A stretch of 64,000 nt of DNA from an uncultured Nitrososphaerota archaeon (lineage in GTDB: Archaea > Korarchaeota > Korarchaeia > Korarchaeales > Korarchaeaceae): assembly GCA_964594835.1 (NCBI GenBank), contig CAZQNA010000003.1, positions 96,001 to 160,000 of the forward strand. The letters are read 5' to 3'. The notes beneath the pieces are model-generated. The model was given only the letters and a program-made list of their open reading frames with translations. It was not told the DNA's origin and did no database searches. Within the stretch, counting starts at the first letter, position 1, and each line of letters opens with the position of its first letter. Shown one piece after another: positions 21,782 to 40,539 of this stretch. Made by a program: the position numbers and the translations under genes.

Positions 21782-22044
21782 CTGAGAACTTCATCTCCCT
21801 TCAGTGGGCCCACCGACCTCGTGAAGAAGGTTCACACCCAAGGGCATGAGGCCGGCTTCAGAGGCCAGAGGACCTACTCATCCATGGATCTTCAGCATTT
21901 AAAGCCGCGCCATCCCCGCCTCTCGTTAAACTTTCGAACATTCCAAATTGTTAACTTTATCCTCAATTCTCGCATCGACAAAAGATAGAAAGAGTGGCCA
22001 AGATTTGGGACAGGTAGAATTAATAAAGATTCGGTTAAAGCCGT

Positions 22045-22290
22045 TCAGCCCGACCTGAGGGCCAGCACCTTGGACTTCAGCGAGGCCCAAGCCTCGTTTA
22101 TCTCCTCCCAATTCATCCCTCGGTGCTTCTTCGGGTCGTACTTCGACCTCCCGACCTTCTCCACGACCTTGACATAAAACGCCTCGACCTCCTTGGGGGT
22201 CAGCTCGAGGACCGAGCCTGAAGGCTTGCTGACAACCTGCTGATAACTTGCGGATAACCCGACGTCTTGCTTACAACTCGTTATCAGCAT
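22045..22290 (-). CDS. Small hypothetical protein or fragment
   Basis: Coding-like C-terminal part (LELTPKEVEAFY...NWEEINEAW); start dubious. Confidence 0.4.
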   Translation of the reverse strand: MLITSCKQDVGLSASYQQVVSKPSGSVLELTPKEVEAFYVKVVEKVGRSKYDPKKHRGMNWEEINEAWASLKSKVLALRSG

Positions 22291-22405
22291 GGGGGGAGGG
22301 GAGACCCCCGTCCCCGACGCGCGGACCTCAACTCAATCCGTGGGCATGCCGACCCGATCGGGGCGGGGGAGTGACCGGAGTCGCGCGCTCCAAACTCAAA
22401 TCCGG

Positions 22406-23230
22406 CTACTGCGAACTCGCTGGCATCAACTTAGATTCAAGGGTCAACGCCGGTAAGTGCTCTGAAATCCTGACCAGTAGCGTCAACCCCTCCTCCGTCT
22501 CCGGGTCTGCGGAGGCGGCCCTCCTCAACAAATCGGCCGCGGGCTTTGGCACCGTCAAGAATGCCCTTTCGTGCCTCCTCAACCCCTTGGCGATCGCGAT
22601 TTTGAACAGGGTCCATAGCGGCGCGTCAGCCGGACCTTCGAGGAGTCGCCAACCCCTCCACCTTTCCACGAAGGGAATGCGGAGCACGTAGGAATCCCCT
22701 CTCCTGAGGAATTCGACGAAGGGCCACGGACCGTCGGCCGCCGGTCTCCTCCACGGCTTGCACCCTCTGGGGATCGCCGCGAACTCTCGCCCAATCGGGA
22801 GTTCGGGTGTGGATCCTCCTCTGAGCCTCTTTGTCAGTTGCAGGAGTACCCTGTCAATCTCCGCCCCCCTTCCCAGCCTGGCCGTCCTGAGAAACGCGCC
22901 CCGCGGGGTCAACTCATTCAATTCCTTGATCGCGGAGTTCAGAGTCGGGAAGTCCCCGCGCCTGACGGCTTTGATTGCCTTCCTGAGAACGTCCGCCGCC
23001 TCTCCGGTAAAGGTGATCCTCGCGGCCGGCAAATTCGGATCCAGCCCCAGCCTGAAGGCGATGTCGAGTATCGAGGCGGCCAGGAGGCGCTCCGGGGAGC
23101 CGGGGATCTGGGCGGTGTGCCATTCGTCCGAGTCGGGGGACTTGACCCACCACGTCTCTCCAACTCTTACCAAGTTCAGGGTGACCGTGCGGGTCTCGGC
23201 GCGCACCTTCAACCGAATGTAGAGCCGCAC
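22406..23230 (-). CDS. Hypothetical protein with internal two-fold repeat
   Basis: 274-aa ORF; repeats ending AADVLRKA and AADLLRRA. Confidence 0.65.
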   Translation of the reverse strand: MRLYIRLKVRAETRTVTLNLVRVGETWWVKSPDSDEWHTAQIPGSPERLLAASILDIAFRLGLDPNLPAARITFTGEAADVLRKAIKAVRRGDFPTLNSAIKELNELTPRGAFLRTARLGRGAEIDRVLLQLTKRLRGGSTPELPIGREFAAIPRGCKPWRRPAADGPWPFVEFLRRGDSYVLRIPFVERWRGWRLLEGPADAPLWTLFKIAIAKGLRRHERAFLTVPKPAADLLRRAASADPETEEGLTLLVRISEHLPALTLESKLMPASSQ

Positions 23231-23322
23231 CCCTATTAACTCGTCCCCCGCCCGGGCCCCCTCCGCTGGAAGCCCAGGCGGGGCGCTCGAGAATGCTCCG
23301 GATACGAAGGAGATGCGATCGT

Positions 23323-23751
23323 CTATTCGGTCCCCTCCTTCTGCGAGGCGCGCGCTATCGCATCCAGCTCTTGAATGAATGCTTCCACTCGAGAGATGAA
23401 TTCCTTGACATCCTCTTCCGAAATTGTTCTCTTAGATGGGAGTTCCTCCCCTGCGTCGTGAATCTTTACGAAGCGGTCATAGAGGTAGTTTTCTCGGTAG
23501 TTGAGAGCCTCTCGGAATTCTCCGAAGAGGTTGCGTGAAATTGACTCGTTGCGGCTAAGGCCGTCTCCTGAAAGCACCGCGACCTTCGAAACGGAGCCAC
23601 CCTGCGACTCTATGAATTCCTCTACCTTCGCTCGGGCGGCGGACAGAGCAAAGTAGACGGCGTTAAAGTAGTCCCCTGACTCCAAGAATCTCTTGGCGTT
23701 GTCGAGCCAGTATTCGATTCCCACACTGTCATCATTCTCCCGATCTGGCAT
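23323..23751 (-). CDS. HEPN-domain protein
   Basis: WLDNAKRFLESGDYFNAVYFA, R-x4-Y (RENYLY), SEEDVKEFISRVEAFI. Confidence 0.72.
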   Translation of the reverse strand: MPDRENDDSVGIEYWLDNAKRFLESGDYFNAVYFALSAARAKVEEFIESQGGSVSKVAVLSGDGLSRNESISRNLFGEFREALNYRENYLYDRFVKIHDAGEELPSKRTISEEDVKEFISRVEAFIQELDAIARASQKEGTE

Positions 23752-23999
23752 ACTCCATTTACCGACCGAGACATAAAAATAGTGAGTGCCTGGGAAATTT
23801 CCTGAGTATTTTTATTCCTCTATTTATAAGGCGCGGATTCCTCTCGTTTTTAACAGACTGATGAGTTCGAGGACTCCGCATTGTCCCGGCTGAACCCTGT
23901 AATGCTTTCCGGATCTCCTCGCGCTCTCAACAACTTCCGCGTGGAACGTGCGCGAACGCAGACTTATGAAAAACGGCGGAATATTGGCGTTGAGCGGGG

Positions 24000-24629
24000 T
24001 TGACCGCCAGAACTTGGAGTGAGGAACTCGTGGCCGAGTGGCTTCGTTTGAGAGGGTATTTCGTCGAGACGAACGTTCCCGTGGGCACGGGAGAGAAGGG
24101 CGGACGCAAAGAGGCCGACATCGTCGGGTTCAGGTTTGTGGAAGGTAAGCCTGAGATCCTGCACATCGAGATCACGGGGAGTTCAGAGGGGAGAGAGGAT
24201 ATGCTGAAGATAGCGCGTTCGAGGTTCGAAAGGAAGCGGGTTGAGACCCTGATCTCGAGGATCGAGTCCGCCGCCGGCGTCAGGGTCGATCCGAGGAATT
24301 ACTGGAAGGTGTTCGTTACCCTTTACCTGAGCATCGGCCCGCGCGCCAGGGTCTTCTGGGAAATCAAGGACGAACTCGCCAAAGAGGGGATCAAGGTCGT
24401 CCACATGGCGGAGTTGCTCCCGTGCATAATCTCAGAAGTTAAGGATAGGGTCGTGACCGAGGAGGGCCACAGAACCCTCCCCCAGAGTTGGTCCACGCTC
24501 AAAGTGATCGAGTACCTGGTGGCGGAGCAGATCGTTTCGTTGAACAGGTCCTGCTCGCTTGACGTTGACGATCTCCTCGGCGCCTCAAATCGGGGGCGGG
24601 GCGATTCACCTAATCCTCAACTCGCTTAA
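24000..24629 (+). CDS. PD-(D/E)XK restriction-endonuclease-like protein
   Basis: EELVAEWL...GY.VETNV...EADIVG...HIEIT. Confidence 0.72.
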   Translation: MTARTWSEELVAEWLRLRGYFVETNVPVGTGEKGGRKEADIVGFRFVEGKPEILHIEITGSSEGREDMLKIARSRFERKRVETLISRIESAAGVRVDPRNYWKVFVTLYLSIGPRARVFWEIKDELAKEGIKVVHMAELLPCIISEVKDRVVTEEGHRTLPQSWSTLKVIEYLVAEQIVSLNRSCSLDVDDLLGASNRGRGDSPNPQLA

Positions 24630-24653
24630 CTTGCCGTGGGGCGTAATGCAGAT

Positions 24654-25511
24654 TCAAGGGTCGAACTTCGATCTCAACCGCGACAAAAGACCGGAACTCC
24701 GCGCTTTGAGGTAAGAACACTTGCCGGGGAAGGACGGCACGCCTTCGAGCGCTTTGAGCATCCTGACAAGCCTCTCGTATGTCTCGTCGAGTTTGGAGTA
24801 CTCGGACATCAACTCTGAGAATTTCGATCGAAGATATTTATCCGACATCAAGCCTTCCAATGCGCTCTTGAGTTCCCTGACCGCCTCCTCCGTCCCTTCT
24901 TTCGTCGCCAAGTTGTCGCCGCCCCACCACACCCCGCCCTCTCGAAGTTCGGGGTTGCCGAGCAACTCGCGCGCGGCCTCTTCCCCAACCGCGGCGGTCT
25001 CCTCCAAGAAGCGAATCAACCTCTGGCAAATCGATGCGATTGAAGGTTCACGATAAGCCCCGACCAGGGGGCCAAGCGTTTCGTCAACCCTCCGCCTCAC
25101 GAGTTCCCTCGCCTCGCCCGACTTCCGCACGTAATCCCTTAACTCCTCCAGGTACTCGCTCCAAATCCTCTCTAAATCACTCTTGGGGTTGAACTTCTCC
25201 CCTCCGCCCATTTCGAGGGGCAAATTGGGCAGGTGTTTGTCGAGGAGGTCCGCCAGCATGGGCTCTTCTCGCTTTAACTCTTCCAGGGATTTAGGGTATT
25301 CTCTGGCTCTGTACGGCTCAACTGGCTTTGGTAGGATCTCTTTTTCCTTCTTAGCAATCCCTCTCAAACTCTCGTAGTGAGCCTTCTTTGCCTCCGCCTC
25401 CACGGCGGCCTCTCTCGCGCGTCTCTTTCCGAGGTAGTATCCGACTCCCAAGCTGATCAGAACAGGAAGTACTTCATTGAGCAAATCCAAGATTTGAGGC
25501 GGTAGATCCAA
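24654..25511 (-). CDS. N-terminally membrane-anchored helical hypothetical protein
   Basis: VLPVLISLGVGYYLG then KRR and a charged helical body. Confidence 0.7.
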   Translation of the reverse strand: MDLPPQILDLLNEVLPVLISLGVGYYLGKRRAREAAVEAEAKKAHYESLRGIAKKEKEILPKPVEPYRAREYPKSLEELKREEPMLADLLDKHLPNLPLEMGGGEKFNPKSDLERIWSEYLEELRDYVRKSGEARELVRRRVDETLGPLVGAYREPSIASICQRLIRFLEETAAVGEEAARELLGNPELREGGVWWGGDNLATKEGTEEAVRELKSALEGLMSDKYLRSKFSELMSEYSKLDETYERLVRMLKALEGVPSFPGKCSYLKARSSGLLSRLRSKFDP

Positions 25512-25562
25512 TTGACAGACACCTCATCTTGTTGCGCGAGGGAACCTTGAAAGATTTGTCGC

Positions 25563-25883
25563 ATGGGAGGGAGGGGGTACGACTTCGCTGTGACTGCCAG
25601 CGGAGGGGAATTCTATGTCAACTTCAAGGCCGAGGTCGCAACCGGCAGGATGCTGGAGACTCTGTGGCTGATGTCCTACTCGGTCTACAAGAAGCTCTCG
25701 AACATGCTGGATAGGCTGTACGTTCTGCACCTAGAGTACCTCTTGGAGGAGTCGAGGGTGAGGGCCAGGAGGGTCTCGTGGGCTGGCCCGGTGTCCTCGC
25801 TGGAGGTGGTGGTGTACGACGAGAACTCTGCCTCCGGGTTCATCCTGAGGCCGGACGGAGGGAGCCCCTGCGGCCGGGAGTGA
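25563..25883 (+). pseudogene. Possible fragment of a PD-(D/E)XK nuclease
   Basis: YDFAV...FYVNFK; short with a degenerate-looking end. Confidence 0.4.
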
Positions 25884-26057
25884 GGGCCAGGACTGACTTC
25901 AACGGGAGGCACGCGCACATGTTTGGCGGGAACTGCGTACAAGCTGGGACTCTCGCCATCAATAGGCTACAATTCGTGGTTATCGACACGCGCGATGCCC
26001 CTAATCATCGGGCGGGGGCGATTTTGAATCAAAAAAAGCTAGAGAGGAGACCGAGCA

Positions 26058-29033
26058 TTAACTAAGCCTCTTTAGCGCTTCAAACTCGTTACACATAGCG
26101 TCATAGAGGTCCTCGAGGAGATCTTGGGCCTCTCTAGCTGAAAATCCCAAGACCTCTAGGATAGTCCTATCAATTTCAACTCTGTACTGGAACCTCTCCT
26201 CTATCTGCTCCCAGACGCTCGGGAACTCGACACGGGCCGTCCTGTCGAATAGGTTCAGGAGAGCATCCCTCTCCTCCTCGCTCAATGTGCGGGGATCCAA
26301 AGTTAGGAAGTCCAGCAGGGCGTATTTGTTGACGTCTATCCAGATGTCCTGGATTTTCGTTACGAGAATCTGCGAAAGGTTGAGCGTGCTGTTCATCCAA
26401 AGTACGGTGATCTTGTGCAGCTTTGGTCCCCCGCCAGGAACGCTCCAGACTGTCCCGTAAGGGACTAGCGGGGTTGCGGAATAGAAGCTAACGTGGCGGA
26501 GTCCTGGGGCTATTGGAGAGTATCGGAAGCCTATGAGCAGACTCGCGAGCCTTCTCCTGATGTATCGCTTCCATCTGTCTAAGGCCGACCCGATCATCTC
26601 CAACCTCCTGTTGGGAAGGAACCTCTCTATCCCTGGGAATGTCTCCACCACCACGTAGTCGTGCTCGTGCTCCCTTATCTCCATGGTCGGGAAATCGCTG
26701 TACGTTATCAGCGCGGGTAAGAGGCTCTGCTTCGGTATGCTCACACACTCTCCTGTGGACCTGTCCTTGGCGACGATCTCCTCAGGGAGGTCCTCCTCGA
26801 CGACCCAGCGATAACCCGCCCGGGGCAGCCTCGACTCAGATCTCCCTATAGCCATCTCGCTTGCTACGATTGGGGGGGCTCGGGAGCGAGTCCCCTCGAC
26901 AACATCCATTTCCTGCGACTGCAGGAGGTCCCCGAAGCGGACGAGCTTTCGCGACCCCCTCCTTATCACTTCACCCCATATATGCCTGATTCTTGGGTCG
27001 TACACTGCGATATATTTGAACCAATTGTCCAATGAATTTTCAAGATCTGCATGACTCACGGATAGTATGTAAAATGGTTCTGTTGAAATTTCGGCTCCGC
27101 TTTCGGCTAGCCTACTCTCCCTAATCTCCTCCGCCATTCTAATTGCGTCGGATGGATTCTCAGGGAGCCTCCTTAACGTAACTATGTTGCAGGGCCTTGA
27201 CCCTCTTCGTCCTTCAGGACTCGCTTTCTGAGCGACTAGGAGGATCTCCCTGATCCAAGCAGATTCAGAAAAGGCCAACCTTTCCCACGCGGTGATTATG
27301 TACTCTATAACGTAGCGTTCTGCCAGGAGCCTGCGTATCCCCTCTGCGCTAGGCACTCTGAGCATCGAGGCTGGGAGCACCAGCGCAAGTCTCCCTCCAT
27401 CCTTCAGGAATCTGTCCGCCAGAAAGATGAAGTAGCCGAAATAACCCATCCTCCCGTCGAAATAGTCGGAGTACTCTAGGAACCTCTGGTCTAGGACGGC
27501 CTTGTATTCCTGAGGGAGCCTCTCCTGCCTAGTGAAGGGCGGATTCATCATGATGATGTCATAGGTCTCAAGCCTGATAGGCCTCCCGCCAGGCCCCTCC
27601 GGCGATAGAACTCCCTTCTCCGGCCTAGTTTCATCTTCCTCCACCCCTAAGTACTGGGAGAGTCTCGGAATCCCGAGGACATCCTCCATCCTTGCCAGCG
27701 ACGGGATTTCCCTTCCAGGGCTCAGCTCTGTGCTATCCCACACTGCCACATTGACGTGGTTCGTTGGCCACTTGGGGGCTTGGGAGGCCAGGTTGATCAC
27801 GGCCAGGTGGGCCGCCAAGGGCATGACGTCGACGCCGAGGAGGTCCTCCTCGACGAACCTCCTGTGATCCTCGGCTGTGAAGAGTTGCTCCTCTGGATAT
27901 CCTCTCTTCCTACGCTCCTCCTCTAGGAGATACTTCTTCCTTCTGTAGGCCGCTACCAAGAGACCTCCGCTTCCACAGGCCAAGTCTGCAACCTTTGCCT
28001 CTGGGTCCTCTATCGCCAGGTGCGCTAAGAATTCCGCCCTCAAGGGGTTCGTGTAGAAGGCCGCAACGTGCTTCCTGACCTCTATTGGTATCAGATCGTG
28101 AAATATCGTACCTATCAGGTCGGGACCGGCTTTCTCTGGGCCTATGGCTTTGACGGCCGCGACGGCGGCCTTTACTCCGTTTAAGTACCGACGTGGCACT
28201 AAGCTCGCGATGTCATAAGCGAAGAGGATCCTGTAGTTTATGTCAAGAACCCTTGAGAAATATTCATTTAGATCAGAGGGCCTCGTTAGAGAGTCTTCGT
28301 CTATCTCAGGAAGTTTCTCCGGGTGAAACCTGGAGAGAATGTGGTAAAACAAGATTTGATCCATGAGAATGAAGGCGGCGGCTTCCCTCATGGCCCCGAC
28401 GGGATACCGTCCCTCCTCATACTGGAGGACGTATTCGAATACCTGCCTTCCTCCGAAGATCCCCTCTATATCCCTGCCTCCCAACCCCCTGAGGCCAGCT
28501 GAGATCTCCTTGGCGGCGGCCCTCAGGACCCCTATGACGTAGTTCAGCGGGATCTCGGGCTTCTCCGGGGGCATCAGGACATGCTCCGCTATGAAGTCCG
28601 CGACCGCGTCTGGCCGGCCCTTGGCGACCTGGAGGGGCCTGGCGTCCTCCGGCGGGAAGATCGCCAGGCAGGTGAACTCGCTGGCCATAACCTCGTCCCT
28701 GAGCCTGTCCAGGGAAATCGGCCTCGCCAGCCTCTCGGGGTAGAGCACCGCAAAGCCCCCGCCGAGCGCGGGCGGGCCTATCAACTTGTGGTGCTTCACG
28801 TAATCGTTGTAGATCTTCTGAATGGCCTTGGGGAAGTCTCTCTCCCTGAACTTGGCCTCAACCACGTATAGCAGGGAGTCCTGGCAGACGATGTCTGGCT
28901 TCCTAGTCCCTACGGGCGTCTTTAGACTCATGTACGGCTGAGCGTGGACGCCCCTGGCCCTGAGTTCCTCCGTGAGGATTGTGGTGAGGGTATCTTCAGT
29001 GGGCTTAGGGAGGGACACATTTGGGACTTGCAC
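26058..29033 (-). CDS. Type IIG-like fused restriction endonuclease / N6-adenine methyltransferase
   Basis: KPDI...VEAK nuclease motif, AFYT, DLACGSGGLL (motif I), NPPF (motif IV), C-terminal TRD-like region. Confidence 0.88.
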   Translation of the reverse strand: MQVPNVSLPKPTEDTLTTILTEELRARGVHAQPYMSLKTPVGTRKPDIVCQDSLLYVVEAKFRERDFPKAIQKIYNDYVKHHKLIGPPALGGGFAVLYPERLARPISLDRLRDEVMASEFTCLAIFPPEDARPLQVAKGRPDAVADFIAEHVLMPPEKPEIPLNYVIGVLRAAAKEISAGLRGLGGRDIEGIFGGRQVFEYVLQYEEGRYPVGAMREAAAFILMDQILFYHILSRFHPEKLPEIDEDSLTRPSDLNEYFSRVLDINYRILFAYDIASLVPRRYLNGVKAAVAAVKAIGPEKAGPDLIGTIFHDLIPIEVRKHVAAFYTNPLRAEFLAHLAIEDPEAKVADLACGSGGLLVAAYRRKKYLLEEERRKRGYPEEQLFTAEDHRRFVEEDLLGVDVMPLAAHLAVINLASQAPKWPTNHVNVAVWDSTELSPGREIPSLARMEDVLGIPRLSQYLGVEEDETRPEKGVLSPEGPGGRPIRLETYDIIMMNPPFTRQERLPQEYKAVLDQRFLEYSDYFDGRMGYFGYFIFLADRFLKDGGRLALVLPASMLRVPSAEGIRRLLAERYVIEYIITAWERLAFSESAWIREILLVAQKASPEGRRGSRPCNIVTLRRLPENPSDAIRMAEEIRESRLAESGAEISTEPFYILSVSHADLENSLDNWFKYIAVYDPRIRHIWGEVIRRGSRKLVRFGDLLQSQEMDVVEGTRSRAPPIVASEMAIGRSESRLPRAGYRWVVEEDLPEEIVAKDRSTGECVSIPKQSLLPALITYSDFPTMEIREHEHDYVVVETFPGIERFLPNRRLEMIGSALDRWKRYIRRRLASLLIGFRYSPIAPGLRHVSFYSATPLVPYGTVWSVPGGGPKLHKITVLWMNSTLNLSQILVTKIQDIWIDVNKYALLDFLTLDPRTLSEEERDALLNLFDRTARVEFPSVWEQIEERFQYRVEIDRTILEVLGFSAREAQDLLEDLYDAMCNEFEALKRLS

Positions 29034-29134
29034 GTGAAACTTAAATGCGCCGCGAGTGAGGGCGTTTTCACACCTGCCAGTTTGTCCTGGCCTTGCAGGC
29101 CAGCCTGACTAGCCCGTCGATGAAATACGCGCGG

Positions 29135-29518
29135 TCAGATGAGCCCCGCGCGCCTGAGCCAGCGCTTCAGCGTCCCGGAGCCCAATCGACCCAACCTCCC
29201 CTCCCGCCCGGGCCAGACCCAGATCCAGGCCCCGCGGCCTTCAATCAAAGCCTCCGGCCTCTTGGGATACCCCAAAACCCCGATCACGCAAAACGGCTCC
29301 GGGTGCTCCCTCTTGAACGCCTCCCTGACCCTCCACGCCAGCGAATCGTGGTCCCGCGAGCCCCTAACCTCGACGAAGGCCCTGCGGCCGCCGCGAACGA
29401 GTTCAAGGTCGTAATGGGCGTGGTCCGACTGGACTGCGATCCTCACGTCCGGCAGGTTCAGCCAGGCGAGTAGGATCTCCAAAGCCCCGGCCACGACCCT
29501 TTCGAGCCTCCGGCCCAT
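29135..29518 (-). CDS. Small PD-(D/E)XK-like protein
   Basis: GRRLERVV...YDLEL...FVEVR. Confidence 0.55.
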   Translation of the reverse strand: MGRRLERVVAGALEILLAWLNLPDVRIAVQSDHAHYDLELVRGGRRAFVEVRGSRDHDSLAWRVREAFKREHPEPFCVIGVLGYPKRPEALIEGRGAWIWVWPGREGRLGRLGSGTLKRWLRRAGLI

Positions 29519-29757
29519 CCTCTTGTTGTACCCGCTCAGGGCGGACCTGCGGGACGCGCGTGTCACGTGCCGACCCCTCCGAGTCGATCCCCAAATTGTT
29601 CAAAATTTGGCGGATATGGTCTCCGAGATCGATTTACGTTTGGGGAAGCGTGCCCGGTGATGACGAAAAATCACGTCAGGTGGCGGAGGGGGCGGCACGC
29701 GACGGGTTTGTGCGTGGGTGTTTGTCGGCCCGGGGAAGTTGCGAGCGGGGGTGTGGG

Positions 29758-33080: not shown

Positions 33081-33514
33081 CCCGGACCCTCCCCAGAAGA
33101 TTGCGTCTTCCGGCCCGTCAATGCGTCAGAAGTCGAGTGAGTCGTCCATGGGTCGGAACTTGGCACTTCCGTCCAAGAGTCGCCTCCGAGGCCCTCCCCG
33201 TCGTCCTCTTCTTCTCCCTCGTCCTCGGGGTCCTCGGGTAAGGGTGGCGCCCCGAGCGGCAGCACGTCGGGGTGGTCCGACGGGTCCCCGTCCCCGGCCT
33301 CGGGGCGCGTCACCCCGCCTGGGTTGGCATCGCGGTCCCCCGCCCATCCGTCGTCGGGCTCCCACCGCGGGTCGACCCTTTCGGGGGCATGCCCCCGCGG
33401 GGTGGGAGATCCCTCTTCAGGGTCGTTCGGTTCGGCCGGGGACCAACCCGGCGGCCATCGAGGCCCCACTTCCCCGACGTCGAACGGTAGATCCCACGTC
33501 GGACGGGCGATCAT
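33077..33514 (-). CDS. Pro/acidic, probably disordered hypothetical protein
   Basis: ATGA overlaps at both ends (33511-33514, 33077-33080). Confidence 0.55.
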   Translation of the reverse strand: MIARPTWDLPFDVGEVGPRWPPGWSPAEPNDPEEGSPTPRGHAPERVDPRWEPDDGWAGDRDANPGGVTRPEAGDGDPSDHPDVLPLGAPPLPEDPEDEGEEEDDGEGLGGDSWTEVPSSDPWTTHSTSDALTGRKTQSSGEGPG

Positions 33515-33735
33515 CCGATCCCCACCTCCCTCATGGCGAGCCAAGCCGCGATCTCCGGGCTGGCGGCCCTGATCTTCATGACGAGGTCGTAGAGCGGGTT
33601 GCCGCCGAAGGGAACTTTGACGTAGTAAACCCCGCCGCGCGCGTAGATCTCGAAGCCCCACCCGTCCACCTCGACCGTAGCGAGGTGCCTCGCGCCCCGG
33701 GGCAACCTCGCGACGTAGACCACCGGATCGGCCAT
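33511..33735 (-). CDS. Small hypothetical protein
   Basis: TGATG coupling with upstream ORF; globular-looking sequence. Confidence 0.65.
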   Translation of the reverse strand: MADPVVYVARLPRGARHLATVEVDGWGFEIYARGGVYYVKVPFGGNPLYDLVMKIRAASPEIAAWLAMREVGIG

Positions 33736-33959
33736 CACGAATCCCTCCCGAGCCACTCGGAGAACTGTCTGGCCCTGATTTTGGCGACCGCCAGGTGCCA
33801 GAGGATCTCGCGGATCTTCCTCTCCGCCTGCGCGTCACCGGCCCCGACGGTCCGCTCGAGGCATTGCCGGAGGATTTCCTCCGCCCCCTCCATCAGCCCC
33901 ACCGCGGAGTCGAGCCGGCCCTCGAGCCCCGAGCGGGCCTCAGCCGACCTCACCTTCAC
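33735..33959 (-). CDS. Small helical hypothetical protein
   Basis: Coupled within the operon. Confidence 0.55.
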   Translation of the reverse strand: MKVRSAEARSGLEGRLDSAVGLMEGAEEILRQCLERTVGAGDAQAERKIREILWHLAVAKIRARQFSEWLGRDS

Positions 33960-34302
33960 CCTCGACCACCTCCGCGAGGACCTCCGCCTCGAGCACGGCG
34001 GATTTCAGGAGGCAGATGCCCTCGTGGCGCCTCTCCTTGCCCTCCAGCGTGCGGCCGAAGACGAGAACGAGGTACTCCGGCGACTCCTTCGCCAGCCAGC
34101 CGACGTACTCGAGTTTGATCGGCTTGGCCAAAGTCTCGTCGATGTCCTCTTCCTCCTCGAAACTGTAATGATCCAAAACGACGATCCTGACGAGAGATCC
34201 CGGCCTGAGCCGGGGCAGGGAGGGAGATCCAGCCCCACCCGCGGCGGGGTCGGGCCCTCCCTCCTCGCGGGCGATCTCACCAGACGTAATCAATCTCACC
34301 AC
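33940..34302 (-). CDS. Small beta-rich hypothetical protein (virus-like)
   Basis: LVRIVVLDH...YVGWLAKESPEYLVL; GGAGG upstream. Confidence 0.6.
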   Translation of the reverse strand: MVRLITSGEIAREEGGPDPAAGGAGSPSLPRLRPGSLVRIVVLDHYSFEEEEDIDETLAKPIKLEYVGWLAKESPEYLVLVFGRTLEGKERRHEGICLLKSAVLEAEVLAEVVEGEGEVG

Positions 34303-34888
34303 TCTCCACCTCCCAATCCGACTTCGGGCGCCCAAGGCGGGCGGCCCCGTCCAAACCGGCGGGCCGGCGCCCCCGCCTGGACAGGTAATCGGCAAGCCAT
34401 TCCGCCTCGGGGAATGACAGTCTGAGCACGTCGACCGCGCGGGCCTGCAGGTCGGCGGGCGGGCCCAGCGTCGAGAGCAGGCGGTGGCCGATCAGGAGGG
34501 TCGTCGGGTCCCCGACCGGGAACAGTTTGGCGCGCTCCCCGTCGGGCGATATGCCGAACGTCCCCGCCTCCCCGATCATGGCCGCAAATTCGGAGAGTTC
34601 CGGGAGGATCAGGTAGGCGGTCTTTGCCTTCTTTCGCTTCCGCGCGACCCGCTTAGCATCGACGAGGATCAGGATCGCGATCGGCAGGTAGAAGCCGAGC
34701 CTGACCTGGAACCTGTCGTAGTCGAGCCACCTGGCGGAGTTCTCGTCGTAGATTACGGGGAACTCGTCCCCGTCGTCTGCTATGAAGATCATGGCGTCAC
34801 CGGGTGTCAATACCCTGACCGCCCTGCCCGACAGGTGCCTCCTGAGGTCCACGACCGCGAACTCGGGTTCGACGAGCCTGACGCTCAC
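34277..34888 (-). CDS. Hypothetical protein
   Basis: GTGA overlap with the rep gene stop. Confidence 0.65.
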   Translation of the reverse strand: MSVRLVEPEFAVVDLRRHLSGRAVRVLTPGDAMIFIADDGDEFPVIYDENSARWLDYDRFQVRLGFYLPIAILILVDAKRVARKRKKAKTAYLILPELSEFAAMIGEAGTFGISPDGERAKLFPVGDPTTLLIGHRLLSTLGPPADLQARAVDVLRLSFPEAEWLADYLSRRGRRPAGLDGAARLGRPKSDWEVESGEIDYVW

Positions 34889-37800
34889 TCCTCACCACCC
34901 CCCTCCTCTCTCTCGGGCTTCACGCGGTAGCGCACCCTCACGACGGCGCCCCTCTCGCCGCACATCTCGCAGATTCCGCCCGGCCTCTGCCCGGTGAAGT
35001 GAACCTCGACGCTCTGGTCCTCCTGGAGGTTCTTGAGGCAGACGTGGCAGACGTCGACCAATTCGAAGTCTGGGAAGGGCCCTCTCGGTGAAAGGGGCTC
35101 AGTTGGACATTCCCCGGTGGGTCCCCCGAACGGGGCCCTCCCCTGCTTTTTCGGCCCCGCGGTCGGAATTGAAATGGGCCCTCTCCTCGCCCCTCCTGGC
35201 CCGTTGGACATCTCTGGACAATTCTCTACAACGGGGCCCTCCACGGGCCCATCATTACTGTGATATTGTCCAACTGAGCCGATCAGTGAACTGGCAATCC
35301 CTTCTCGAGCCTCACTCTCGATTTCGGGCCCTCTCGTGGGCCTTAGATTTTGTCCAACAGGACCCCCATTCCAAGATGTGGGTGGGGCGGCGGCGCCGGG
35401 CGCCCCTATGTTGGAAGGTGTCCCCGTTGGACAAATTGGACAAACCCTCTCCTCGCTTCTTTCTCCCTTTTGGTCGTCGAGAAGTCTTGTCAGTGGGTCG
35501 ATCGGCTCAGTTGGACATTCTTTGATATCAGAGGGGCCACCACCTTCGCCAACTCCGATGCTTTGTCCAAAGTAGGATTGCCACAACTCGTCGACCGTTA
35601 TATCACGGCCATCATGGGACAGGATAGTGACGGCCTCCCCGCGCGCCTCTGCGGCCTGGACGATGGCCCTGAAGTCTTCCTCCAGATCCTCCTTCGTGAA
35701 ACTCCTGACCGCCTCTCTCATCTCCTCGATGAAGGGCGGAATGAGATCCTCCCTTACCATCCTCCAGAGGTACGAACCCCTCCGCTCGGGGTTCTCGCGC
35801 CTCTCGACGGCTTTGACATCCAAAAGTTTGCGAAGGTAGTAATCGGCCGACGAGCGGGGGTATCCGAGTTCGGTGGACACCTCCGTGAGCGTAAACTCGC
35901 TTGATCCGAACCTCTCCTTGAGTTTCTTGAAGAATTGAACCGTGTTCTCGCTGAGCCCGGTCATCGCGGTCTCGAGCGTGCTCTCGTAGACGCGAAGGGC
36001 GGTCTCGAAGTCTTTTGGCAAGACGATGATGCTCTCCGCGTCCCCAACCTTCAGCGTCGGCCTGGCGAAGACGTTGGTAGCCGCGACGGCCTGCACCAGC
36101 GTCAAGAAAGCCTTGATATCCCTCATATGACGTCCTTTATCCGCGGGAAACGCTCTGGCGATCTGGTTCCTGAAGGGAATCCAGAAGAACGATTGTCCTG
36201 GCTTTACGAGTTTCTTCCTCCTGTTGAGTTCCCTAAGGACGAGCGTCAGCCTCGCGCGGACCTCCTCCAGCTCTTTGGTCTGGTACTTCGCCTCGAACGC
36301 TGGTCCAGGGAGTCCGAACCGGTCGCTGGACAGCGCATTGGCCTCCCGGTACTTCTCCGGGCCGGTCTGCGGGCTGATCGTGAGGAATCGCGTGCGGATC
36401 TGGTCTTCCAACCACCTCGGAAACTCTTCCTCTTCAGTTTTGCAGAAGATGACGACCGGCCAGCCCCGGATGAGGATCTTCTCCGTTCTGAGGCGGCCTC
36501 CCTTCTTCTCGACAAATCTGTATTCAGTTTCATAGGCGTCCCGGCTTAAGTGGGGCCTTAAACGGGCTAAGAGGGCATCATCGGGCTTTTCAAGGAACAG
36601 GAGGATCTTTCCGTCGAGGTCGACGAGGCGCCTGGAGTGCGAAAGTAGGTCGACGAATTCCCTGGTCAGGGCCTCCTTTTCGCTCTTGTCCTTCGTCGCG
36701 TCGATGCGAGCCCGGAGGGCGGCGATCTGATCCGCGATTGGCCTGCCCTCTTCGTCCACCAACTCTCCGTGATCGTAGATGAACGAGCGCTCAGAGGCCC
36801 CTATGAGGATCAGAATTTTGTCCCGCGGGTAGAGTTCCGCGACGGAGAGGATAGGGTAGGTCTTCCCCTCAGAGGAGGGTGCGACGTTGGCCATGTTGAG
36901 CGGGGAGGGCAACTCGCTGGAGAGCATCGTGGCGTGGGCGTAGATCACGCTCCGCGCATCCTTCTTGACGAGCCGGCTTGCCGCCTTAACTACTCGGCTC
37001 CAGAGGTCTTCGTGGGCCAATTCCGCCTTCAGTTCGTCCGGGTCGATGTCGAACTCCCAATCGAACCCGCGTTCCTCCTCTTCAGGCCGCTTGGGAAGGG
37101 CCCTCCTGATCGCCTCGACCGTTTCCTCGTCCAATAGTTCCCGGAGCCCGGAAAGGCCCTTGACCTCGTTCAAGGGCTTTTCATAGGTGTCCCTGACGAA
37201 TCGGAGCCTATCCTCGACTTCCTCGTCGCCAGCGAGCAGGGCTATCGCCTTAACGATGAACTCCGCCTCCTCCTGGGGGATTCCCCTTTTGCGCAAATAG
37301 CCCGCGAGCGGACCCGCGAGGTGGTGGCGCTGGCTCGGCGTCCAAGCCGGAACGACGGCCTCGACGAACCTCTTCCACCACCTCGCCATCTCCACCTTCT
37401 TTAGAAGTCTCTGAAGCGCCTCCTCGTCCACGCGCCCGATCGGCGTCCTTTCGGGGTCGCTCAGCCACGTATACGGGCGTCCCGACGGGTGAATCGATGG
37501 AGGGGCCGTCACCAGGAGGCCATTCGTGCGGATCTCAACCCAACCCTCAACCTTGACGGGCTTGCAACTCCGCGGGAGCCTCAGGTAGACGTGATAGCCC
37601 TTCCCGGTCTTCACGACCCATGTAAATTGTGCTATCTCCTCGATTGAGCCATTGAAGAAAAGGGAGAAGGGTTCGGGCCCCTCGAGGTCGACGACCGCTA
37701 CTCCCCCGGGGATTACGAGGCCGATTCCGACCTCTTCAGGGCTTTTACCAGCGAACCAAGTCTCCAACTCCTCGTCCGTCGGCAATCGCTCCCGCGCGGG

Positions 37801-37956
37801 CTCCCAAGTCGGCCGACCGTCCTCCTTGAGCCAGCCGACGGCCGCTAGGAGTTTGCCGTGGGGCCTCTTCTCCCTTGGACGAAGCGGAATTACCGGGAAG
37901 CCGCGCGAAACGTATAATTGAGCCCATCCGAGAACGCTCCGCTGTTTAGTCTCCAC
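34885..37956 (-). CDS. Replication protein: Prim-Pol + PriCT-like + MCM-like AAA+ helicase + wHTH + C-terminal Zn finger
   Basis: GFPVIPL..K.P, VVDLE, KTGKGYHVY, APPSIHPSG..Y.W; APSSEGKT; RTRF; RHMRD; FTLTEVSTELG; CHVC...CEMC. Confidence 0.88.
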   Translation of the reverse strand: METKQRSVLGWAQLYVSRGFPVIPLRPREKRPHGKLLAAVGWLKEDGRPTWEPARERLPTDEELETWFAGKSPEEVGIGLVIPGGVAVVDLEGPEPFSLFFNGSIEEIAQFTWVVKTGKGYHVYLRLPRSCKPVKVEGWVEIRTNGLLVTAPPSIHPSGRPYTWLSDPERTPIGRVDEEALQRLLKKVEMARWWKRFVEAVVPAWTPSQRHHLAGPLAGYLRKRGIPQEEAEFIVKAIALLAGDEEVEDRLRFVRDTYEKPLNEVKGLSGLRELLDEETVEAIRRALPKRPEEEERGFDWEFDIDPDELKAELAHEDLWSRVVKAASRLVKKDARSVIYAHATMLSSELPSPLNMANVAPSSEGKTYPILSVAELYPRDKILILIGASERSFIYDHGELVDEEGRPIADQIAALRARIDATKDKSEKEALTREFVDLLSHSRRLVDLDGKILLFLEKPDDALLARLRPHLSRDAYETEYRFVEKKGGRLRTEKILIRGWPVVIFCKTEEEEFPRWLEDQIRTRFLTISPQTGPEKYREANALSSDRFGLPGPAFEAKYQTKELEEVRARLTLVLRELNRRKKLVKPGQSFFWIPFRNQIARAFPADKGRHMRDIKAFLTLVQAVAATNVFARPTLKVGDAESIIVLPKDFETALRVYESTLETAMTGLSENTVQFFKKLKERFGSSEFTLTEVSTELGYPRSSADYYLRKLLDVKAVERRENPERRGSYLWRMVREDLIPPFIEEMREAVRSFTKEDLEEDFRAIVQAAEARGEAVTILSHDGRDITVDELWQSYFGQSIGVGEGGGPSDIKECPTEPIDPLTRLLDDQKGERSEERVCPICPTGTPSNIGAPGAAAPPTSWNGGPVGQNLRPTRGPEIESEAREGIASSLIGSVGQYHSNDGPVEGPVVENCPEMSNGPGGARRGPISIPTAGPKKQGRAPFGGPTGECPTEPLSPRGPFPDFELVDVCHVCLKNLQEDQSVEVHFTGQRPGGICEMCGERGAVVRVRYRVKPEREEGGGEE
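35074..35570. repeat. Iteron-like cluster (TTGGACA/TGTCCAA x8, GGGCCCTC x5) inside rep gene; candidate origin
   Basis: Heptamer at 35103, 35204, 35267, 35351, 35427, 35436, 35511, 35564; GGCTCAGTTGGACA three times, one inverted. Confidence 0.75.
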
Positions 37957-38293
37957 AATCCCCCACCTCGCTCAATTGGACCCAACCACCCGCAATGACG
38001 AAGCCCTTGGCCTCCAGGAACTTCCTAGCCTCCTCGTAGGCTTTCTTGAAGGCGGCGAAGGTTCTCTGATGATCCTGAAGATCTCGTGGGCGAGGACGGA
38101 ACTCGCGAGAAAAACAGACGACGATTCCGCCCGGGCAGACGACGTAGAAACGGAGCGTGGCACACCCCAGGAGCCGTAGCCGCCAGTTCACTGGCGGCCA
38201 CGAGGCGTCAACTGCAACCTTGGCCCCGTTCAGCTCTTCGACCAGTCTAAGGAAGGCCTCAAGGCTGTCAACGGCGACGATCACGCCCATCAC
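37946..38293 (-). CDS. Hypothetical protein
   Basis: Overlaps the rep start; coupled with upstream ORF. Confidence 0.65.
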   Translation of the reverse strand: MMGVIVAVDSLEAFLRLVEELNGAKVAVDASWPPVNWRLRLLGCATLRFYVVCPGGIVVCFSREFRPRPRDLQDHQRTFAAFKKAYEEARKFLEAKGFVIAGGWVQLSEVGDCGD

Positions 38294-38526
38294 TCTCCCC
38301 TCCTATCCTCTGGCTTTTCGGCTGACGCTGACGCTTGTAGGAGAAGTCCAACGAATTTGGCTTCTATGGGTCCGAGGACTGAGCGCAAGGCCTGACGAAG
38401 CGCCTCGTCGTTCCTGAGTTCGTTCGCGAGGCTCCTGGCCCGATCCACAACGTTTAAATCGACCAACCGCCGGTGATACCGGCGGGGAGGCGGGTCCGGG
38501 TGGGAATGCGCGCACGGGTGGCTCAT
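38290..38526 (-). CDS. Small hypothetical protein
   Basis: ATG 38526 directly after the RHH stop, strong RBS. Confidence 0.55.
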   Translation of the reverse strand: MSHPCAHSHPDPPPRRYHRRLVDLNVVDRARSLANELRNDEALRQALRSVLGPIEAKFVGLLLQASASAEKPEDRRGE

Positions 38527-38527
38527 C

Positions 38528-38719
38528 TCACCCCTCCCCTCCCCCGCTCCCGTCCTTCTCCGTGAATAAGCCAAGACGGCGAAGCTCTCGCCGAACGGCC
38601 GCTCGGACTAATTCGGAAATCGAGAAGTAGTAGCCAGCCCCGATCGCTTGTTTCACGGCCTCGTCTAGCGATTTAGGCACGAGTATGTCCCACCGACCAA
38701 CCAACCTCTTCCTCCCCAA
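38528..38719 (-). CDS. CopG-like ribbon-helix-helix regulator
   Basis: ILVPKSLDEAV..AI..GYY.SISELVR.AVR. Confidence 0.85.
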   Translation of the reverse strand: MGRKRLVGRWDILVPKSLDEAVKQAIGAGYYFSISELVRAAVRRELRRLGLFTEKDGSGGGEG

Positions 38720-38751
38720 CTTCAGACAACCTCCCGAGGCCCCGCCAAGGG

Positions 38752-39130
38752 GCCCGGGATCCTCCCGGGCGTGGAGTTTTTTTCCTTTTCTGTTATCACA
38801 TCCATACCGTAACTTAAACGAAGTTTATTAAATCAAAGAGGCTTATTAATTTATTAAATGGAGTTGAATATCACAAATTTTGACGCGCCCTTCGCCCGTT
38901 CCGACGTTACGCACAGGGCCGTTTTACAATATCTCAACATGTAAGAAATTTAGGAAACAGATTCACTAATTTCGTTGAAAGAATGGCAATAACCGCCAAA
39001 CTTCCCGAAATCAAAATGATTTAGATAACTGAGGTTTTCTCGAAAAAATGTTGATGATTTTGTGGAAATTTTGGCGCCACGGCGCCAATATGTCGGCGAC
39101 GGCGCGCCGAAAAAATCGCCGAGTTGTATG
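38752..39130. promoter_or_regulatory. AT-rich control region of the element
   Basis: TTTATTAAAT at 38824 and 38850, hairpin 38752-38770 with T-run, palindrome TTGGCGCC-AC-GGCGCCAA at 39071-39088. Confidence 0.6.
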
Positions 39131-39155
39131 TAAATGTTCCGGGTGCTGATCCGAT

Positions 39156-40304
39156 TCAGTCTTGGGACCCCTCCCCCCGGGTCAGGGCCTCGAGGAGGGC
39201 TTCCCTCACCTTCGGGTCGTTCAGGAGGGCCACGATCAGCTCGTTCAACTCCTTCCTCTTCTCCGCGACCCTCCTCCTGGCCCCCTCGGTCAGCGGATAG
39301 CCGCACCTCAGGCAGAATTCTGCGTCTCTCGGGTTCACGTAACCGCAGTTCGGGCATGCCTCTGGCCTCAGGGGGCTCTCCTCGACGCGCTCCTCCTCGG
39401 GCTCGATGTGGTGAACCTTCCTCAATATCGACTCCTCCACGTCCCTCCCGCTCAGGTGGACGTAGACCGCGGCCATGTCGGACGACTGGGTCCAGCCCGC
39501 GAACACTTTCAACTCCTGCTCGGTGAGTTCCCGGGCGAGTTCGGTCAGCCTCGTGTGCCTGAGCATGTGGGGGTGGACCCTCTTCCCGAGCCCCGCCTTC
39601 TCCCCCGCCCTCCTCACCATCTGGTAGAGGGCCGCCCTGGTCAGAGGACTCCCCGCCCTGTCCAGGAAGAGGGGGGCGTCGGGGTCCCCGGGCCTTGGGT
39701 GCACCTGGAGCCAGGCCCGAAGGTAGGGGGCGGAGTCGTGGAGGGGAATGGTCCTGACCCCCGTCTTCCCCCTCACCCTGATCCTGAACCCGTAATCCGT
39801 GAACTCCAAATCTCGCATCCTCAGCGAGCACAGCTCACTCGCCCGCAGGGCGCCCTCGTAGAGCACGGCCATCGCCGCCTTGTGCATCGGGCTCCTGCCA
39901 GCCTTCACCAAAGCCCTGACCTCCTCCGGGCTGAGGACCTTGTCCCTCAGGTCGGTCCTCTTCGGGACCCTGAGCCTGACCTCCCCCCACGCCTCGGGGG
40001 GCTTGCCACCGTTCTTCCACCTCACGAGCGCGCTCAGGCGGGCGTGGTACTGCCAGGCGGTCCTCTCGCTCCTCCCTCCCGCCTTCAACTCCGAGAGGAA
40101 CCTCCTTATCGTCTCCGAGTCGGCTTCCCACGGCGCGGTCCGGGTGATCCGCCACCAGGCGAGGGCCGCGTTCAGCAGGTTGACCTGAGAGTCCAGGGAC
40201 AGGCTCCTCTCCAGCGAATAGGCTCTGATGGCATCTGAGATCTCCTCGGGGAGTTCCCTGAGCCTCCGCTCCACCCTCCCCGACAGGCCCGTTTCCCCGC
40301 CCAT
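39156..40304 (-). CDS. Tyrosine recombinase/integrase with C-terminal Zn ribbon
   Basis: YEGALRASEL, GKTG.R, HPHMLRH, GW...S.M..VY, CPNCG...CLRCG. Confidence 0.94.
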   Translation of the reverse strand: MGGETGLSGRVERRLRELPEEISDAIRAYSLERSLSLDSQVNLLNAALAWWRITRTAPWEADSETIRRFLSELKAGGRSERTAWQYHARLSALVRWKNGGKPPEAWGEVRLRVPKRTDLRDKVLSPEEVRALVKAGRSPMHKAAMAVLYEGALRASELCSLRMRDLEFTDYGFRIRVRGKTGVRTIPLHDSAPYLRAWLQVHPRPGDPDAPLFLDRAGSPLTRAALYQMVRRAGEKAGLGKRVHPHMLRHTRLTELARELTEQELKVFAGWTQSSDMAAVYVHLSGRDVEESILRKVHHIEPEEERVEESPLRPEACPNCGYVNPRDAEFCLRCGYPLTEGARRRVAEKRKELNELIVALLNDPKVREALLEALTRGEGSQD

Positions 40305-40539
40305 CGGGCGGGGCGTCGGACCCCTCCGTTATTAAGGTTGTGGTAACATTAACAATTGGTAGCAATTAACTTTCTAACCTTCAGACTAGGCACTCGCGGT
40401 CGAAGGGCCGACTGGGGCCCTCGCCGAGGTGGGTCGAAAAACTCTCGATCTTATCCCGACGGGCTCCCACACCGAGTTCATGGGCGGCTAAGACGGGCGC
40501 GGACAGGGAGAAGGATGAGAAAAAGGGGAGGAGGCGGCA

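Follow-up and report, generated by a model that had tools for sequence, protein, structure and literature searches.

We analyzed a 64,000-nucleotide stretch of DNA (the window; C3:96001–160000) from an archaeal bin of 1.82 Mb in 24 contigs that is 97% complete, and found within it an element, E1, spanning window positions ~21926–40382 (~18.5 kb) that is probably an integrative plasmid-like element of a small, lineage-restricted family in a hydrothermal-vent korarchaeon. Runs containing the window sequence are labelled hydrothermal vent metagenome, the encoded proteins are rich in arginine, lysine and glutamate (R, K, E), and relatives of the E1 ATPase are named Korarchaeota, Korarchaeum or Thermoproteota. 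High GC first suggested a haloarchaeal pleolipovirus-like provirus, a candidate that was dropped because the proteins are R/K/E-rich rather than acidic and the relatives carry Korarchaeota names. The estimated limits agree with those proposed in a preliminary description of this DNA (21900–40380), and every gene named there is present. Read from right to left, the order is integrase, AT-rich gap, ribbon-helix-helix (RHH) gene, two small open reading frames (ORFs), PrimPol, five orphans, resolvase, o335, ATPase, o143 and cargo. Twenty-four proteins were screened against the Pfam, PHROGs and NCBIfam family libraries, with PADLOC as a fourth library. The features of E1 are listed below in window coordinates, with protein lengths in amino acids (aa), DNA lengths in nucleotides (nt) and E2–E4 denoting related elements.

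40366–40382: tentative core of the right attachment site (attR), TTAACTTTCTAACCTTC, an imperfect repeat of 21926–21943
39156–40304, minus strand: tyrosine integrase carrying a zinc ribbon at its C terminus, 382 aa (PF00589 E 1.3e-26; Zn_Ribbon_1 7.5e-7; phrog_1 1.8e-32)
38720–39155: AT-rich intergenic control region, 436 nt, GC 0.44, with a possible promoter or origin role
38528–38719, minus strand: small RHH (CopG/ParD-like) regulator, 63 aa (NCBIfam TIGR02606 E 1.6e-4, under the curated cut-off)
38290–38574, minus strand: small orphan o94, 94 aa, family in none of the four libraries
37946–38293, minus strand: small orphan o115, 115 aa, family in none of the four libraries
34885–37956, minus strand: replicase, 1023 aa, with PrimPol, P-loop helicase-like middle, winged helix and C-terminal zinc ribbon (PF09250 E 1.3e-21; TrmB winged helix-turn-helix (wHTH) 7.9e-4)
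33077–34888, minus strand: five translationally coupled orphans without family match, given in the next five lines
34277–34888, minus strand: o203, 203 aa, relatives in E3 and E4
33940–34395, minus strand: o151, 151 aa, relative in E3
33735–33959, minus strand: o74, 74 aa, no family match
33511–33756, minus strand: o81, 81 aa, relatives in E2, E4 and locus L030
33077–33517, minus strand: o146, 146 aa, relative in E2
32445–33080, minus strand: serine resolvase/invertase, 211 aa (PF00239 E 2.6e-49), with a probable role in multimer resolution
31386–32393, minus strand: coiled-coil protein o335, 335 aa (probably 313 aa, start 32327), relatives in E2, E3, E4 and locus L016
29758–31389, minus strand: predicted HerA/VirB4-type P-loop ATPase, 543 aa, with a C-terminal winged-helix-like domain (structure model and fold matches)
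29135–29566, minus strand: o143, small PD-(D/E)xK-like (NOV_C) protein, 143 aa (family-level PF13020 matches)
26058–29033, minus strand: type IIG restriction-modification enzyme, 991 aa, cargo (N6_Mtase 9.5e-12; Eco57I 3.8e-11; PADLOC mad2 2.1e-18 and REase_MTase_IIG 4.8e-15)
22045–25883: further cargo and terminal genes, the sole family match a weak HEPN, given in the next five lines
24654–25511, minus strand: o285, no family match
24000–24629, plus strand: o209, no family match
23323–23751, minus strand: HEPN-like gene (weak HEPN match, 0.0089)
22406–23230, minus strand: o274, no family match
22045–22290, minus strand: o81b, terminal gene, 81 aa; a similar gene closes E2 too (88% DNA identity)
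21926–21943: tentative core of the left attachment site, TTAAACTTTCGAACATTC, repeating the attR site; the left side of a contig that skips E1 stops at 21930

The backbone genes, from the integrase through o143, all lie on the minus strand, and four-base start/stop overlaps were located at four junctions (GTGA at o94/o115 and PrimPol/o203, ATGA at o146/resolvase and o335/ATPase), bearing out the one-strand, overlapping backbone that had been described. GC content is 0.60 in E1 and 0.66 in the flanks, dropping to 0.44 in the gap at 38720–39155. Thirteen E1 proteins have no family in any of the four libraries. Reading of the translations further revealed an N-terminal PD...EAK motif in the type IIG enzyme and a Walker A motif in the middle part of the replicase.

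Comparison with two other species of the same genus, G001 (locus L008) and G004 (locus L009), reveals sites from which E1 is absent. In G001, homologs of window positions 21673 and 42317 lie ~400 nt apart, and in G004 homologs of 21764 and 47068 lie ~230 nt apart, so the E1 genes are not syntenic core genes in either relative. The left flank gene encodes a surface protein (20147–21781), and the right flank in G001 begins with a pyroglutamyl peptidase gene (42284–43135) followed by pyrF/E/K/D. The PrimPol gene was found in none of four genomes from the genus and in 3 of 41 relatives with G000 counted, and a pattern scan of the species genomes found no close PrimPol relative. We also examined four public runs (X1–X4; two samples from two studies, the X1 sample being a possible source), each represented by assembled contigs only. 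One X1 contig joins 21930 to 40591, skipping 21931–40590. Summed contig depth in X1 is 9–12 across 22734–39408 and ~19–21 on the flanks, X2 has the same tendency (~5–8.5 across most of E1, 9–10.6 on the flanks), and X3 and X4 have no clear step at E1; these depths are sums and suggestive only, and they fit a mixed population, some of whose cells are without E1. Because the flank homologs are joined in G001 and G004, the PrimPol gene was found in none of the four same-genus genomes, one X1 contig skips the region and its GC content (0.60) is below that of the flanks (0.66), we conclude that E1 is an integrated, strain-variable insertion and not a chance arrangement of genes. The empty site in two relatives and the skipping contig thus uphold the view of the preliminary description that an integrated mobile element lies here. 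The syntenic site of G004 also lacks the pyroglutamyl peptidase gene and pyrF/pyrE/pyrK/pyrD (window 42284–47068), which are present here and in G001, and this absence on the pyr side marks the locus as a rearrangement hotspot beyond E1 itself.

The ends of E1 were located less directly. We found no flanking direct repeats of at least 14 nt between the two ends and no tRNA or other Rfam RNA gene in the window as a target, and comparison with G001 and G004 yielded no base-level insertion point because the intergenic DNA is too diverged. The best local end-to-end match pairs AACTTTCGAACATTC (21929–21943) with AACTTTCTAACCTTC (40368–40382) at 13 of 15 positions, with the integrase gene 62 nt from the proposed attR. 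We give this match some weight because the left side of the skipping contig stops at 21930, an X1 contig ending at 40397 marks an assembly-graph branch at 40368–40397, and the related element E2 carries a homologous arm on each side together with its own TTAA(A)GGTTT-type pair, TTAAAGGTTT and TTAAGGTTT, at the corresponding places. Homology between the integrase-side arms of E1 and E2 extends as far as ...ATTAA, and the o81b-side arms are homologous too. We tentatively assign the ends to 21926–21943 and 40366–40382.

The DNA around E1 has further features of note. The adjoining GEVED-domain gene (40540–42147) contains degenerate tandem repeats at 40774–41023, and alternative contig continuations at 40631, 40983 and 41015 in the runs indicate strain variation right beside E1. 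On the other side, window 16429–16724, inside an ORF at 16054–16779 that is followed by a PIN-domain gene (16879–17529), has 15 matching places across G001 and G004 at 68–84% identity and an internal 84-nt duplication; it could represent either a gene family with several copies or a small repeat element.

E1 belongs to a small family. Its ATPase has 20 homologs at 50–100% identity among 5.8 billion clusters, all unnamed or 'hypothetical', and an exhaustive profile search of 1.84 billion representatives defined a family of 21 clusters; the gene occurs in 7 of 43 Korarchaeota genomes, all within one family. Scans of IMG/VR with the ATPase profile, PrimPol and integrase gave no matches, nor did the ATPase match a phage collection or PLSDB, and the preliminary description appears right in calling the family undescribed, every database name being 'hypothetical protein'. 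A second member, E2, lies in the same genome at C8:~101100–101848 and C7:1–~13050 (~13.7 kb; locus L026 is C7:1–18000), the end of C8 and the start of C7 overlapping by 55 identical bases. It starts with an integrase (78% identical to that of E1), an HTH_17 protein, a wHTH protein and a 723-aa protein without family, followed by proteins of 95, 469 and 136 aa, continues with o81-like and o146-like genes, a 239-aa tyrosine recombinase and a 421-aa coiled-coil protein, and ends with an ATPase (78%), an o143-like protein (67%), a ParE-like toxin and an o81b-like last gene (88% DNA identity). E3 (L014, in a Thermoproteota-labelled bin) encodes an integrase (54%), a replicase that is alike only in the helicase part, o203-like and o151-like proteins, a coiled-coil protein, an ATPase (76%) and an o143-like protein (69%). 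E4 (L029) encodes a 785-aa protein, o203-like and o81-like proteins, a small tyrosine recombinase, a coiled-coil protein, an ATPase and an o143-like protein, and is followed by a chromosomal DNA ligase gene. At locus L016 a fragment encodes a tyrosine recombinase, a coiled-coil protein, an ATPase and an o143 protein, and G004 has an integrase fragment 1.3 kb away from an o81b-like gene, which looks like a decayed copy. Just past the end of E3, an inverted 60-aa fragment (L014:12936–13109) is 78% identical to part of the E3 replicase and may be a remnant of an earlier insertion.

Across these members the predicted architecture of integrase, replicase, recombinase, coiled coil, ATPase and nuclease is fixed, and a variable bay lies between o143 and o81b, 7 kb long with the restriction enzyme in E1 and ~1.5 kb with a toxin gene in E2. 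In E1 the slot of the second recombinase is occupied by a serine enzyme; E2, E4 and L016 have a small tyrosine recombinase there. For the replicase as for the second recombinase, comparison of the members indicates that the slot is retained and the gene inside it swapped for a non-homologous one. The E1 replicase is 52% identical to that of metagenome locus L022. Its PrimPol domain matches pRN1 ORF904 (1rni) at E 0.015, and RepA proteins of small archaeal plasmids are 24–33% identical across the N-terminal 16–27% of the replicase; the closest plasmid matches of the domain are from Saccharolobus (4967 bp), Sulfolobus (9689 bp) and Thermococcus (7674 bp), cryptic plasmids that are all rated non-mobilizable. 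As in pRN-type plasmids, the PrimPol-helicase gene is preceded by that of a CopG/RHH regulator, with an RHH match below the curated cut-off. Elsewhere, the 1094-aa protein P0042 joins an N-terminal PrimPol 79% identical to that of E1 to an MCM helicase domain, further evidence of replicase module shuffling in the group.

The coiled-coil protein o335, the ATPase and o143 form a trio. We obtained AlphaFold2 structure models for two of the ~19 element proteins, the ATPase and o335. The ATPase model (18-row alignment; predicted local distance difference test (pLDDT) score 74, predicted template modelling (pTM) score 0.64) has its best Foldseek match in HerA (7wrw, E 4.9e-7). Structural alignment with VIA-align, in which values within 1 Z are ties, gave Z 14.0 for S. 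solfataricus HerA, 13.8 for D. radiodurans HerA, 13.7 for VirB4, 12.5 for DndH-C, 11.7 for HerA-DUF, 10.4 for TdpAB, 9.9 for Sir2-HerA, 9.1 for TrwB, 8.1 for the STIV2 packaging ATPase B204 and 6.1 for FtsK. The HerA and VirB4 alignments cover 286–310 residues at a root-mean-square deviation of 4.5–5.5, and the two are inseparable because Z differs by less than one unit; the model thus predicts a HerA/VirB4-type core fold. Residues ~420–540 resemble Cdc6/ORC and MarR-type winged helices (Z 6–7). By sequence, the ATPase reaches 18.2 bits against Pfam DUF87, whose cut-off is 23.2, and PDB searches with the ATPase and o143 profiles gave no matches.

Among seven relatives of o143, five match PF13020 (NOV_C, restriction-endonuclease-like; best E 1.1e-5, two above cut-off), and the family conserves residues E22, D53 and E66-x-K68. 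A relative of o143 directly follows the ATPase gene in eight of nine loci (E1–E4, L015, L016, L021 and L032; not L022), judged where at least 600 nt were available downstream; L017, L018 and L020 break off too soon for a judgement, and at L030 only a remnant is left. This places o143 in the backbone and not among the cargo, to which the preliminary description had assigned it. The orphan and ATPase that it drew ahead of the cargo are indeed there, but the ATPase is not alone, being part of a conserved three-gene module. Complex prediction for the ATPase and o143 scored 0.28 and 0.13 against a mark of 0.32, values that count neither way on binding. The o335 model (6 rows, pLDDT 74, pTM 0.47) combines a long helix with two domains, a small beta domain and one of alpha/beta type, and neither the PDB (best Foldseek E 0.12; VIA Z no higher than 5.6, mainly on the helix) nor BFVD (best E 0.03) holds a significant fold match. 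A homolog search with o335 returned two proteins, its own record and one 90% relative, and a protein atlas gave no usable lead (best score 0.78, recognition below mark). PADLOC has no match for the ATPase, o143 or o335.

More distant ATPases, 34–58% identical to that of E1, define a second group of loci that we call type A (L022, L018, L021 and L020 from metagenomes, L032 and L015 from genomes). Their ATPase genes neighbor a gene for a ~700–840-aa protein with a signal peptide, beta-sandwich matches and a C-terminal anchor, and the loci also encode an unrelated coiled-coil protein, two proteins of ~120–140 aa, small proteins with two transmembrane (2-TM) segments (60–120 aa) and a 390–426-aa 3-TM protein. 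The coiled-coil proteins of the two groups align at an hhalign probability of 31%, through the coiled coil alone. L022 carries a PrimPol gene (52% identity to E1) and an integrase fragment, and the type A locus L021 occurs in one metagenome together with the E1-type locus L016. PHROGs has no match for the type A proteins, and none of their membrane or structural proteins was found in E1 by a hydrophobicity scan or in the host genome with the queries used. Type A loci may represent an unrecognized korarchaeal virus or conjugative element.

We searched the host for immune memory of E1 and for transfer machinery. Its two clustered regularly interspaced short palindromic repeat (CRISPR) arrays (C8:28817–45039 and C8:52567–55194) share a 37-nt repeat in 203 and 34 copies, and none of the 241 spacers matches E1 or related loci, bar one beside E2. 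That spacer, A142, aligns over 36 of its 43 nt (2 mismatches) with C7:13227–13262, in a XerA-like recombinase gene abutting the E2 integrase; the recombinase heading type A locus L021 is 59% identical to this XerA-like protein. Spacer-like matches in 36 family genomes (G000 counted) include none that is convincing, the short ones being 81–96% identical over 25–50 nt and lying in conserved genes. Spacer matching, which the preliminary description had named as a check, yielded a single match beside E2 and no convincing one for E1 itself. A search of the host for a Ced/Ted-like system gave seven DUF87 matches, two of them below cut-off (one the E1 ATPase); among the neighborhoods of the five above it, none is clearly a transfer locus and one is a herA-rad50 operon.

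Integrative plasmid, named as an alternative in the preliminary description, is the best reading of E1: among plasmids its PrimPol domain is most similar to those of small cryptic ones from archaea, and the resolvase slot is a plasmid trait. On the foundation of the gene identities, the insertion and the family, we infer roles for the parts, with the trio as the most conjectural. The tyrosine integrase would insert and excise E1 at a short TTAA-containing site outside tRNA genes, and the RHH protein and small ORFs downstream of the AT-rich region would control one long operon. The PrimPol-helicase would replicate the excised circle in the manner of pRN-type plasmids, with the serine resolvase resolving multimers. 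The trio of coiled coil, HerA/VirB4-type translocase and PD-(D/E)xK nuclease might process or pump the element's own DNA or attack competing DNA, and the variable bay between nuclease and last gene would hold defence cargo, here the type IIG enzyme. With no recognizable particle or mating-pore genes, cell-to-cell transfer would need parts encoded elsewhere, or be rare. Dependence on a helper is conceivable because distant ATPase relatives adjoin membrane-protein genes that E1 lacks.

Several observations weigh against this reading. Both assignments of a role to the trio, DNA processing or pumping and attack, are pure inference, and the window's own o143 has no PF13020 match and carries R68 where its relatives have the motif lysine. 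A weak PHROG match links the ATPase to large terminase (25.7 bits, residues 259–320), with no stretch that passes alone. The folds cover only 2 of ~19 E1 proteins, and a novel capsid or membrane protein may be among the orphans. No second recombinase was found in E3. Coverage steps and circular junctions had been proposed as checks; depth drops in X1 and X2, but no contig in the four runs joins the ends back to each other, in assemblies from which rare forms would be lost, and the contigs of related elements are fragments. The attachment-site repeat is short and imperfect (13 of 15), and its pattern was taken from the same two sites that its count covers, making that count circular. On its right the skipping contig resumes at 40591, 208 nt past the proposed attR and within the last 17 codons of the adjoining GEVED-domain gene, and its two sides have no letters in common where they join; the letters between the contig sides are not given, so the empty allele may differ there.

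Two rival explanations turn on the trio. It is possible, although on balance unlikely, that an otherwise minimal integrative plasmid carries the trio for defence against, or exclusion of, viruses or plasmids, in the manner of Sir2-HerA, DUF4297-HerA and TdpAB, an explanation compatible with the integrative plasmid and different only in the role of the trio. The ATPase model matches HerA partners from defence systems (DndH-C 12.5, HerA-DUF 11.7, TdpAB 10.4, Sir2-HerA 9.9), the o143 partner is nuclease-like, and the neighbors include the type IIG enzyme in E1, the ParE-like toxin in E2 and a DUF3800 protein in E4; the DUF3883/NOV_C nuclease domain reportedly works in a published defence protein (PMC11232893). 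Yet PADLOC recognizes none of the three proteins, the partner and profile of known HerA-based defence systems (Sir2-HerA, DUF4297-HerA, TdpAB, Dnd) were not found, the partner here being NOV_C-like, and type A ATPases sit among membrane-protein genes. Defence cargo usually varies, whereas the trio occurs in every E1-type member at a fixed place, ATGA-coupled, with the variable bay coming after it. A defence role for the trio is nonetheless as open as one in an integrative mobilizable element (IME), in which the trio would stand in for relaxase and coupling protein and deliver DNA to an apparatus encoded by the host or by type A loci. By analogy this too is attractive, because archaeal conjugation has been proposed to be relaxase-free and HerA-nuclease-based: Beltran et al. 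2023 (PMC9905601) propose conjugation without relaxases in which HerA-nuclease machinery makes the transferred DNA, and HerA-nuclease pairs replacing relaxases would fit the trio. The ATPase fold, tied between HerA (14.0, 13.8) and VirB4 (13.7) with TrwB at 9.1, the sharing of the ATPase family and mostly of o143 with type A loci beside anchored, 2-TM and 3-TM proteins, the PrimPol relative in L022 and the co-occurrence of L021 and L016 all point the same way. Against it, the queries used turned up neither a pilin nor a VirB6-like or other type A protein in the 97%-complete genome, the type A proteins may be virion proteins, and the coiled-coil proteins of the two groups are not detectably related. 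We consider the IME explanation doubtful. The further proposal that the E1 family comprises the first mobile elements recognized in Korarchaeota and an archaeal counterpart of IMEs, with the trio replacing relaxase and coupling protein and feeding DNA into a type A transfer or particle apparatus, is likewise doubtful.

Two other explanations involve viruses, and we rate both as improbable. A virus satellite in the sense of phage-inducible chromosomal islands (PICIs) or pSSVi would be excised, replicated and packed upon helper infection, with the HerA-type ATPase or orphans redirecting packaging. The order of integrase, regulators, replicase and small orphans fits, as do the size of 18.5 kb, the presence of E1 in only part of the population and an ATPase superfamily that includes viral packaging motors (STIV2 B204, Z 8.1). 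In agreement with the preliminary description, no capsid, terminase, relaxase or multi-TM mating-pore gene was found in E1 by the four libraries, the hydrophobicity scan and the two folds. Its label of a PICI or satellite is neither supported nor refuted. That label lacks support because integrative and pRN-type plasmids of archaea have the same order of integrase, regulator and PrimPol, and the testable PICI features are missing: the backbone runs in one direction without a divergent repressor/activator pair next to the integrase gene, and no terS, cpm, ppi or other helper-hijacking gene, small-terminase or capsid-remodelling analogs included, was found among the 24 proteins with Pfam, PHROGs and NCBIfam. 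Nor was a helper virus recognized in the host genome, and no Korarchaeota provirus has been reported or was recognized here. The 241 host spacers hold none against E1 and the 36 family genomes no clear one, IMG/VR and phage records contain no relatives, and the ATPase fold is nearer to HerA/VirB4 than to packaging ATPases. A provirus of an unknown archaeal type, with capsid or envelope proteins among the unfolded orphans, would draw on the 13 proteins without family, and archaeal virion proteins are often missed by sequence searches. A provirus would also draw on the suggestion in PMC4158269 that the HerA-like ATPases of 'dark matter' islands in archaea are viral DNA pumps. However, every E1 protein has at most one hydrophobic segment and small 2-TM proteins, the pattern of spindle and pleomorphic virus capsid proteins, are absent; a multi-TM VirB6-like pore and a pilin beside the VirB4-type ATPase, the trait of integrative and conjugative elements, were likewise not found in E1. 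The largest conserved orphan, o335, the one orphan modelled, matches no viral fold, jelly-roll and HK97 included, so the check for a capsid among the orphans came back negative for it, and a dimer-resolution recombinase with a pRN-like replicase are plasmid traits.

Among known systems, the integrative plasmid reading places E1 closest to the pRN family (pRN1, pIT3, pORA1), which shares a small CopG/RHH regulator upstream of a large PrimPol-helicase-wHTH replicase and the lack of structural genes. The plasmids pSSVi and pSSVx are integrative or satellite relatives of pRN plasmids in Sulfolobales, and pSSVi also has an integrase. E1 is two to four times larger, adds a second recombinase, the HerA/VirB4 ATPase-nuclease trio and a defence bay, resides in a different host phylum with no helper virus known, and resembles the family only across the N-terminal 16–27% of the replicase. 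PICIs and Staphylococcus aureus pathogenicity islands of bacteria likewise combine an integrase at one end with regulators, a primase-type replicase and small accessory genes in 10–20 kb without capsid genes; E1 differs in its archaeal host, its co-directional backbone, the lack of terS/cpm/ppi analogs and the lack of a known helper. The HerA-nuclease machines, HerA-NurA of end resection and the defence systems Sir2-HerA, DUF4297-HerA and TdpAB, share the ATPase core fold (Z 10–14) and an adjoining nuclease-fold protein. Unlike HerA, the E1 ATPase aligns from ~residue 115 of the S. solfataricus protein, seems in the model to be missing the N-terminal barrel and has a C-terminal winged helix instead; its partner is a 143-aa NOV_C-like protein and not NurA, Sir2 or DUF4297, in the context of a mobile-element backbone. 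Integrated elements in Thaumarchaeota have reportedly been surveyed by Krupovic et al. in 2019. By analogy, E1 may also be compared with bacterial IMEs and with the archaeal Ced/Ted DNA-transfer systems (PMC9905601): it has an integration module of its own and a VirB4/HerA-class ATPase without a recognizable pore, whereas no relaxase, oriT, pilin or VirB6 analog was identified in E1, nor in its host with the queries used. Archaeal 'dark matter islands' (Makarova et al. 2014) are similarly patchy in distribution and made mostly of orphan genes, and Table 1 of PMC4158269 has integrases, wHTH regulators and HerA-like helicases among their commonest genes. The listing there is of gene families and not of the element family of E1, and the E1 ATPase misses the DUF87 cut-off and makes up a separate family of 21 clusters whose nuclease partner is fixed.

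We know of no described plasmids or viruses from Korarchaeota and of no helper virus. A search of the literature on proviruses, integrases and mobile elements of Korarchaeota/Korarchaeia, with most subscription journals outside its reach, returned no description of such an element, and a 2026 survey reports no provirus in 124 Korarchaeota genomes (PMC13573593); the E1 family thus appears not to have been described before. An element family whose ends are mapped, whose integrase and replicase look functional and which has two copies in one genome would offer a first view of gene movement in a deep-branching uncultured lineage, and it could supply vector parts. The fixed pairing of a predicted HerA/VirB4-type motor with a small nuclease on a mobile backbone bears on how relaxase-free archaeal elements prepare DNA for transfer; alternatively, it could turn out to be a novel defence module.

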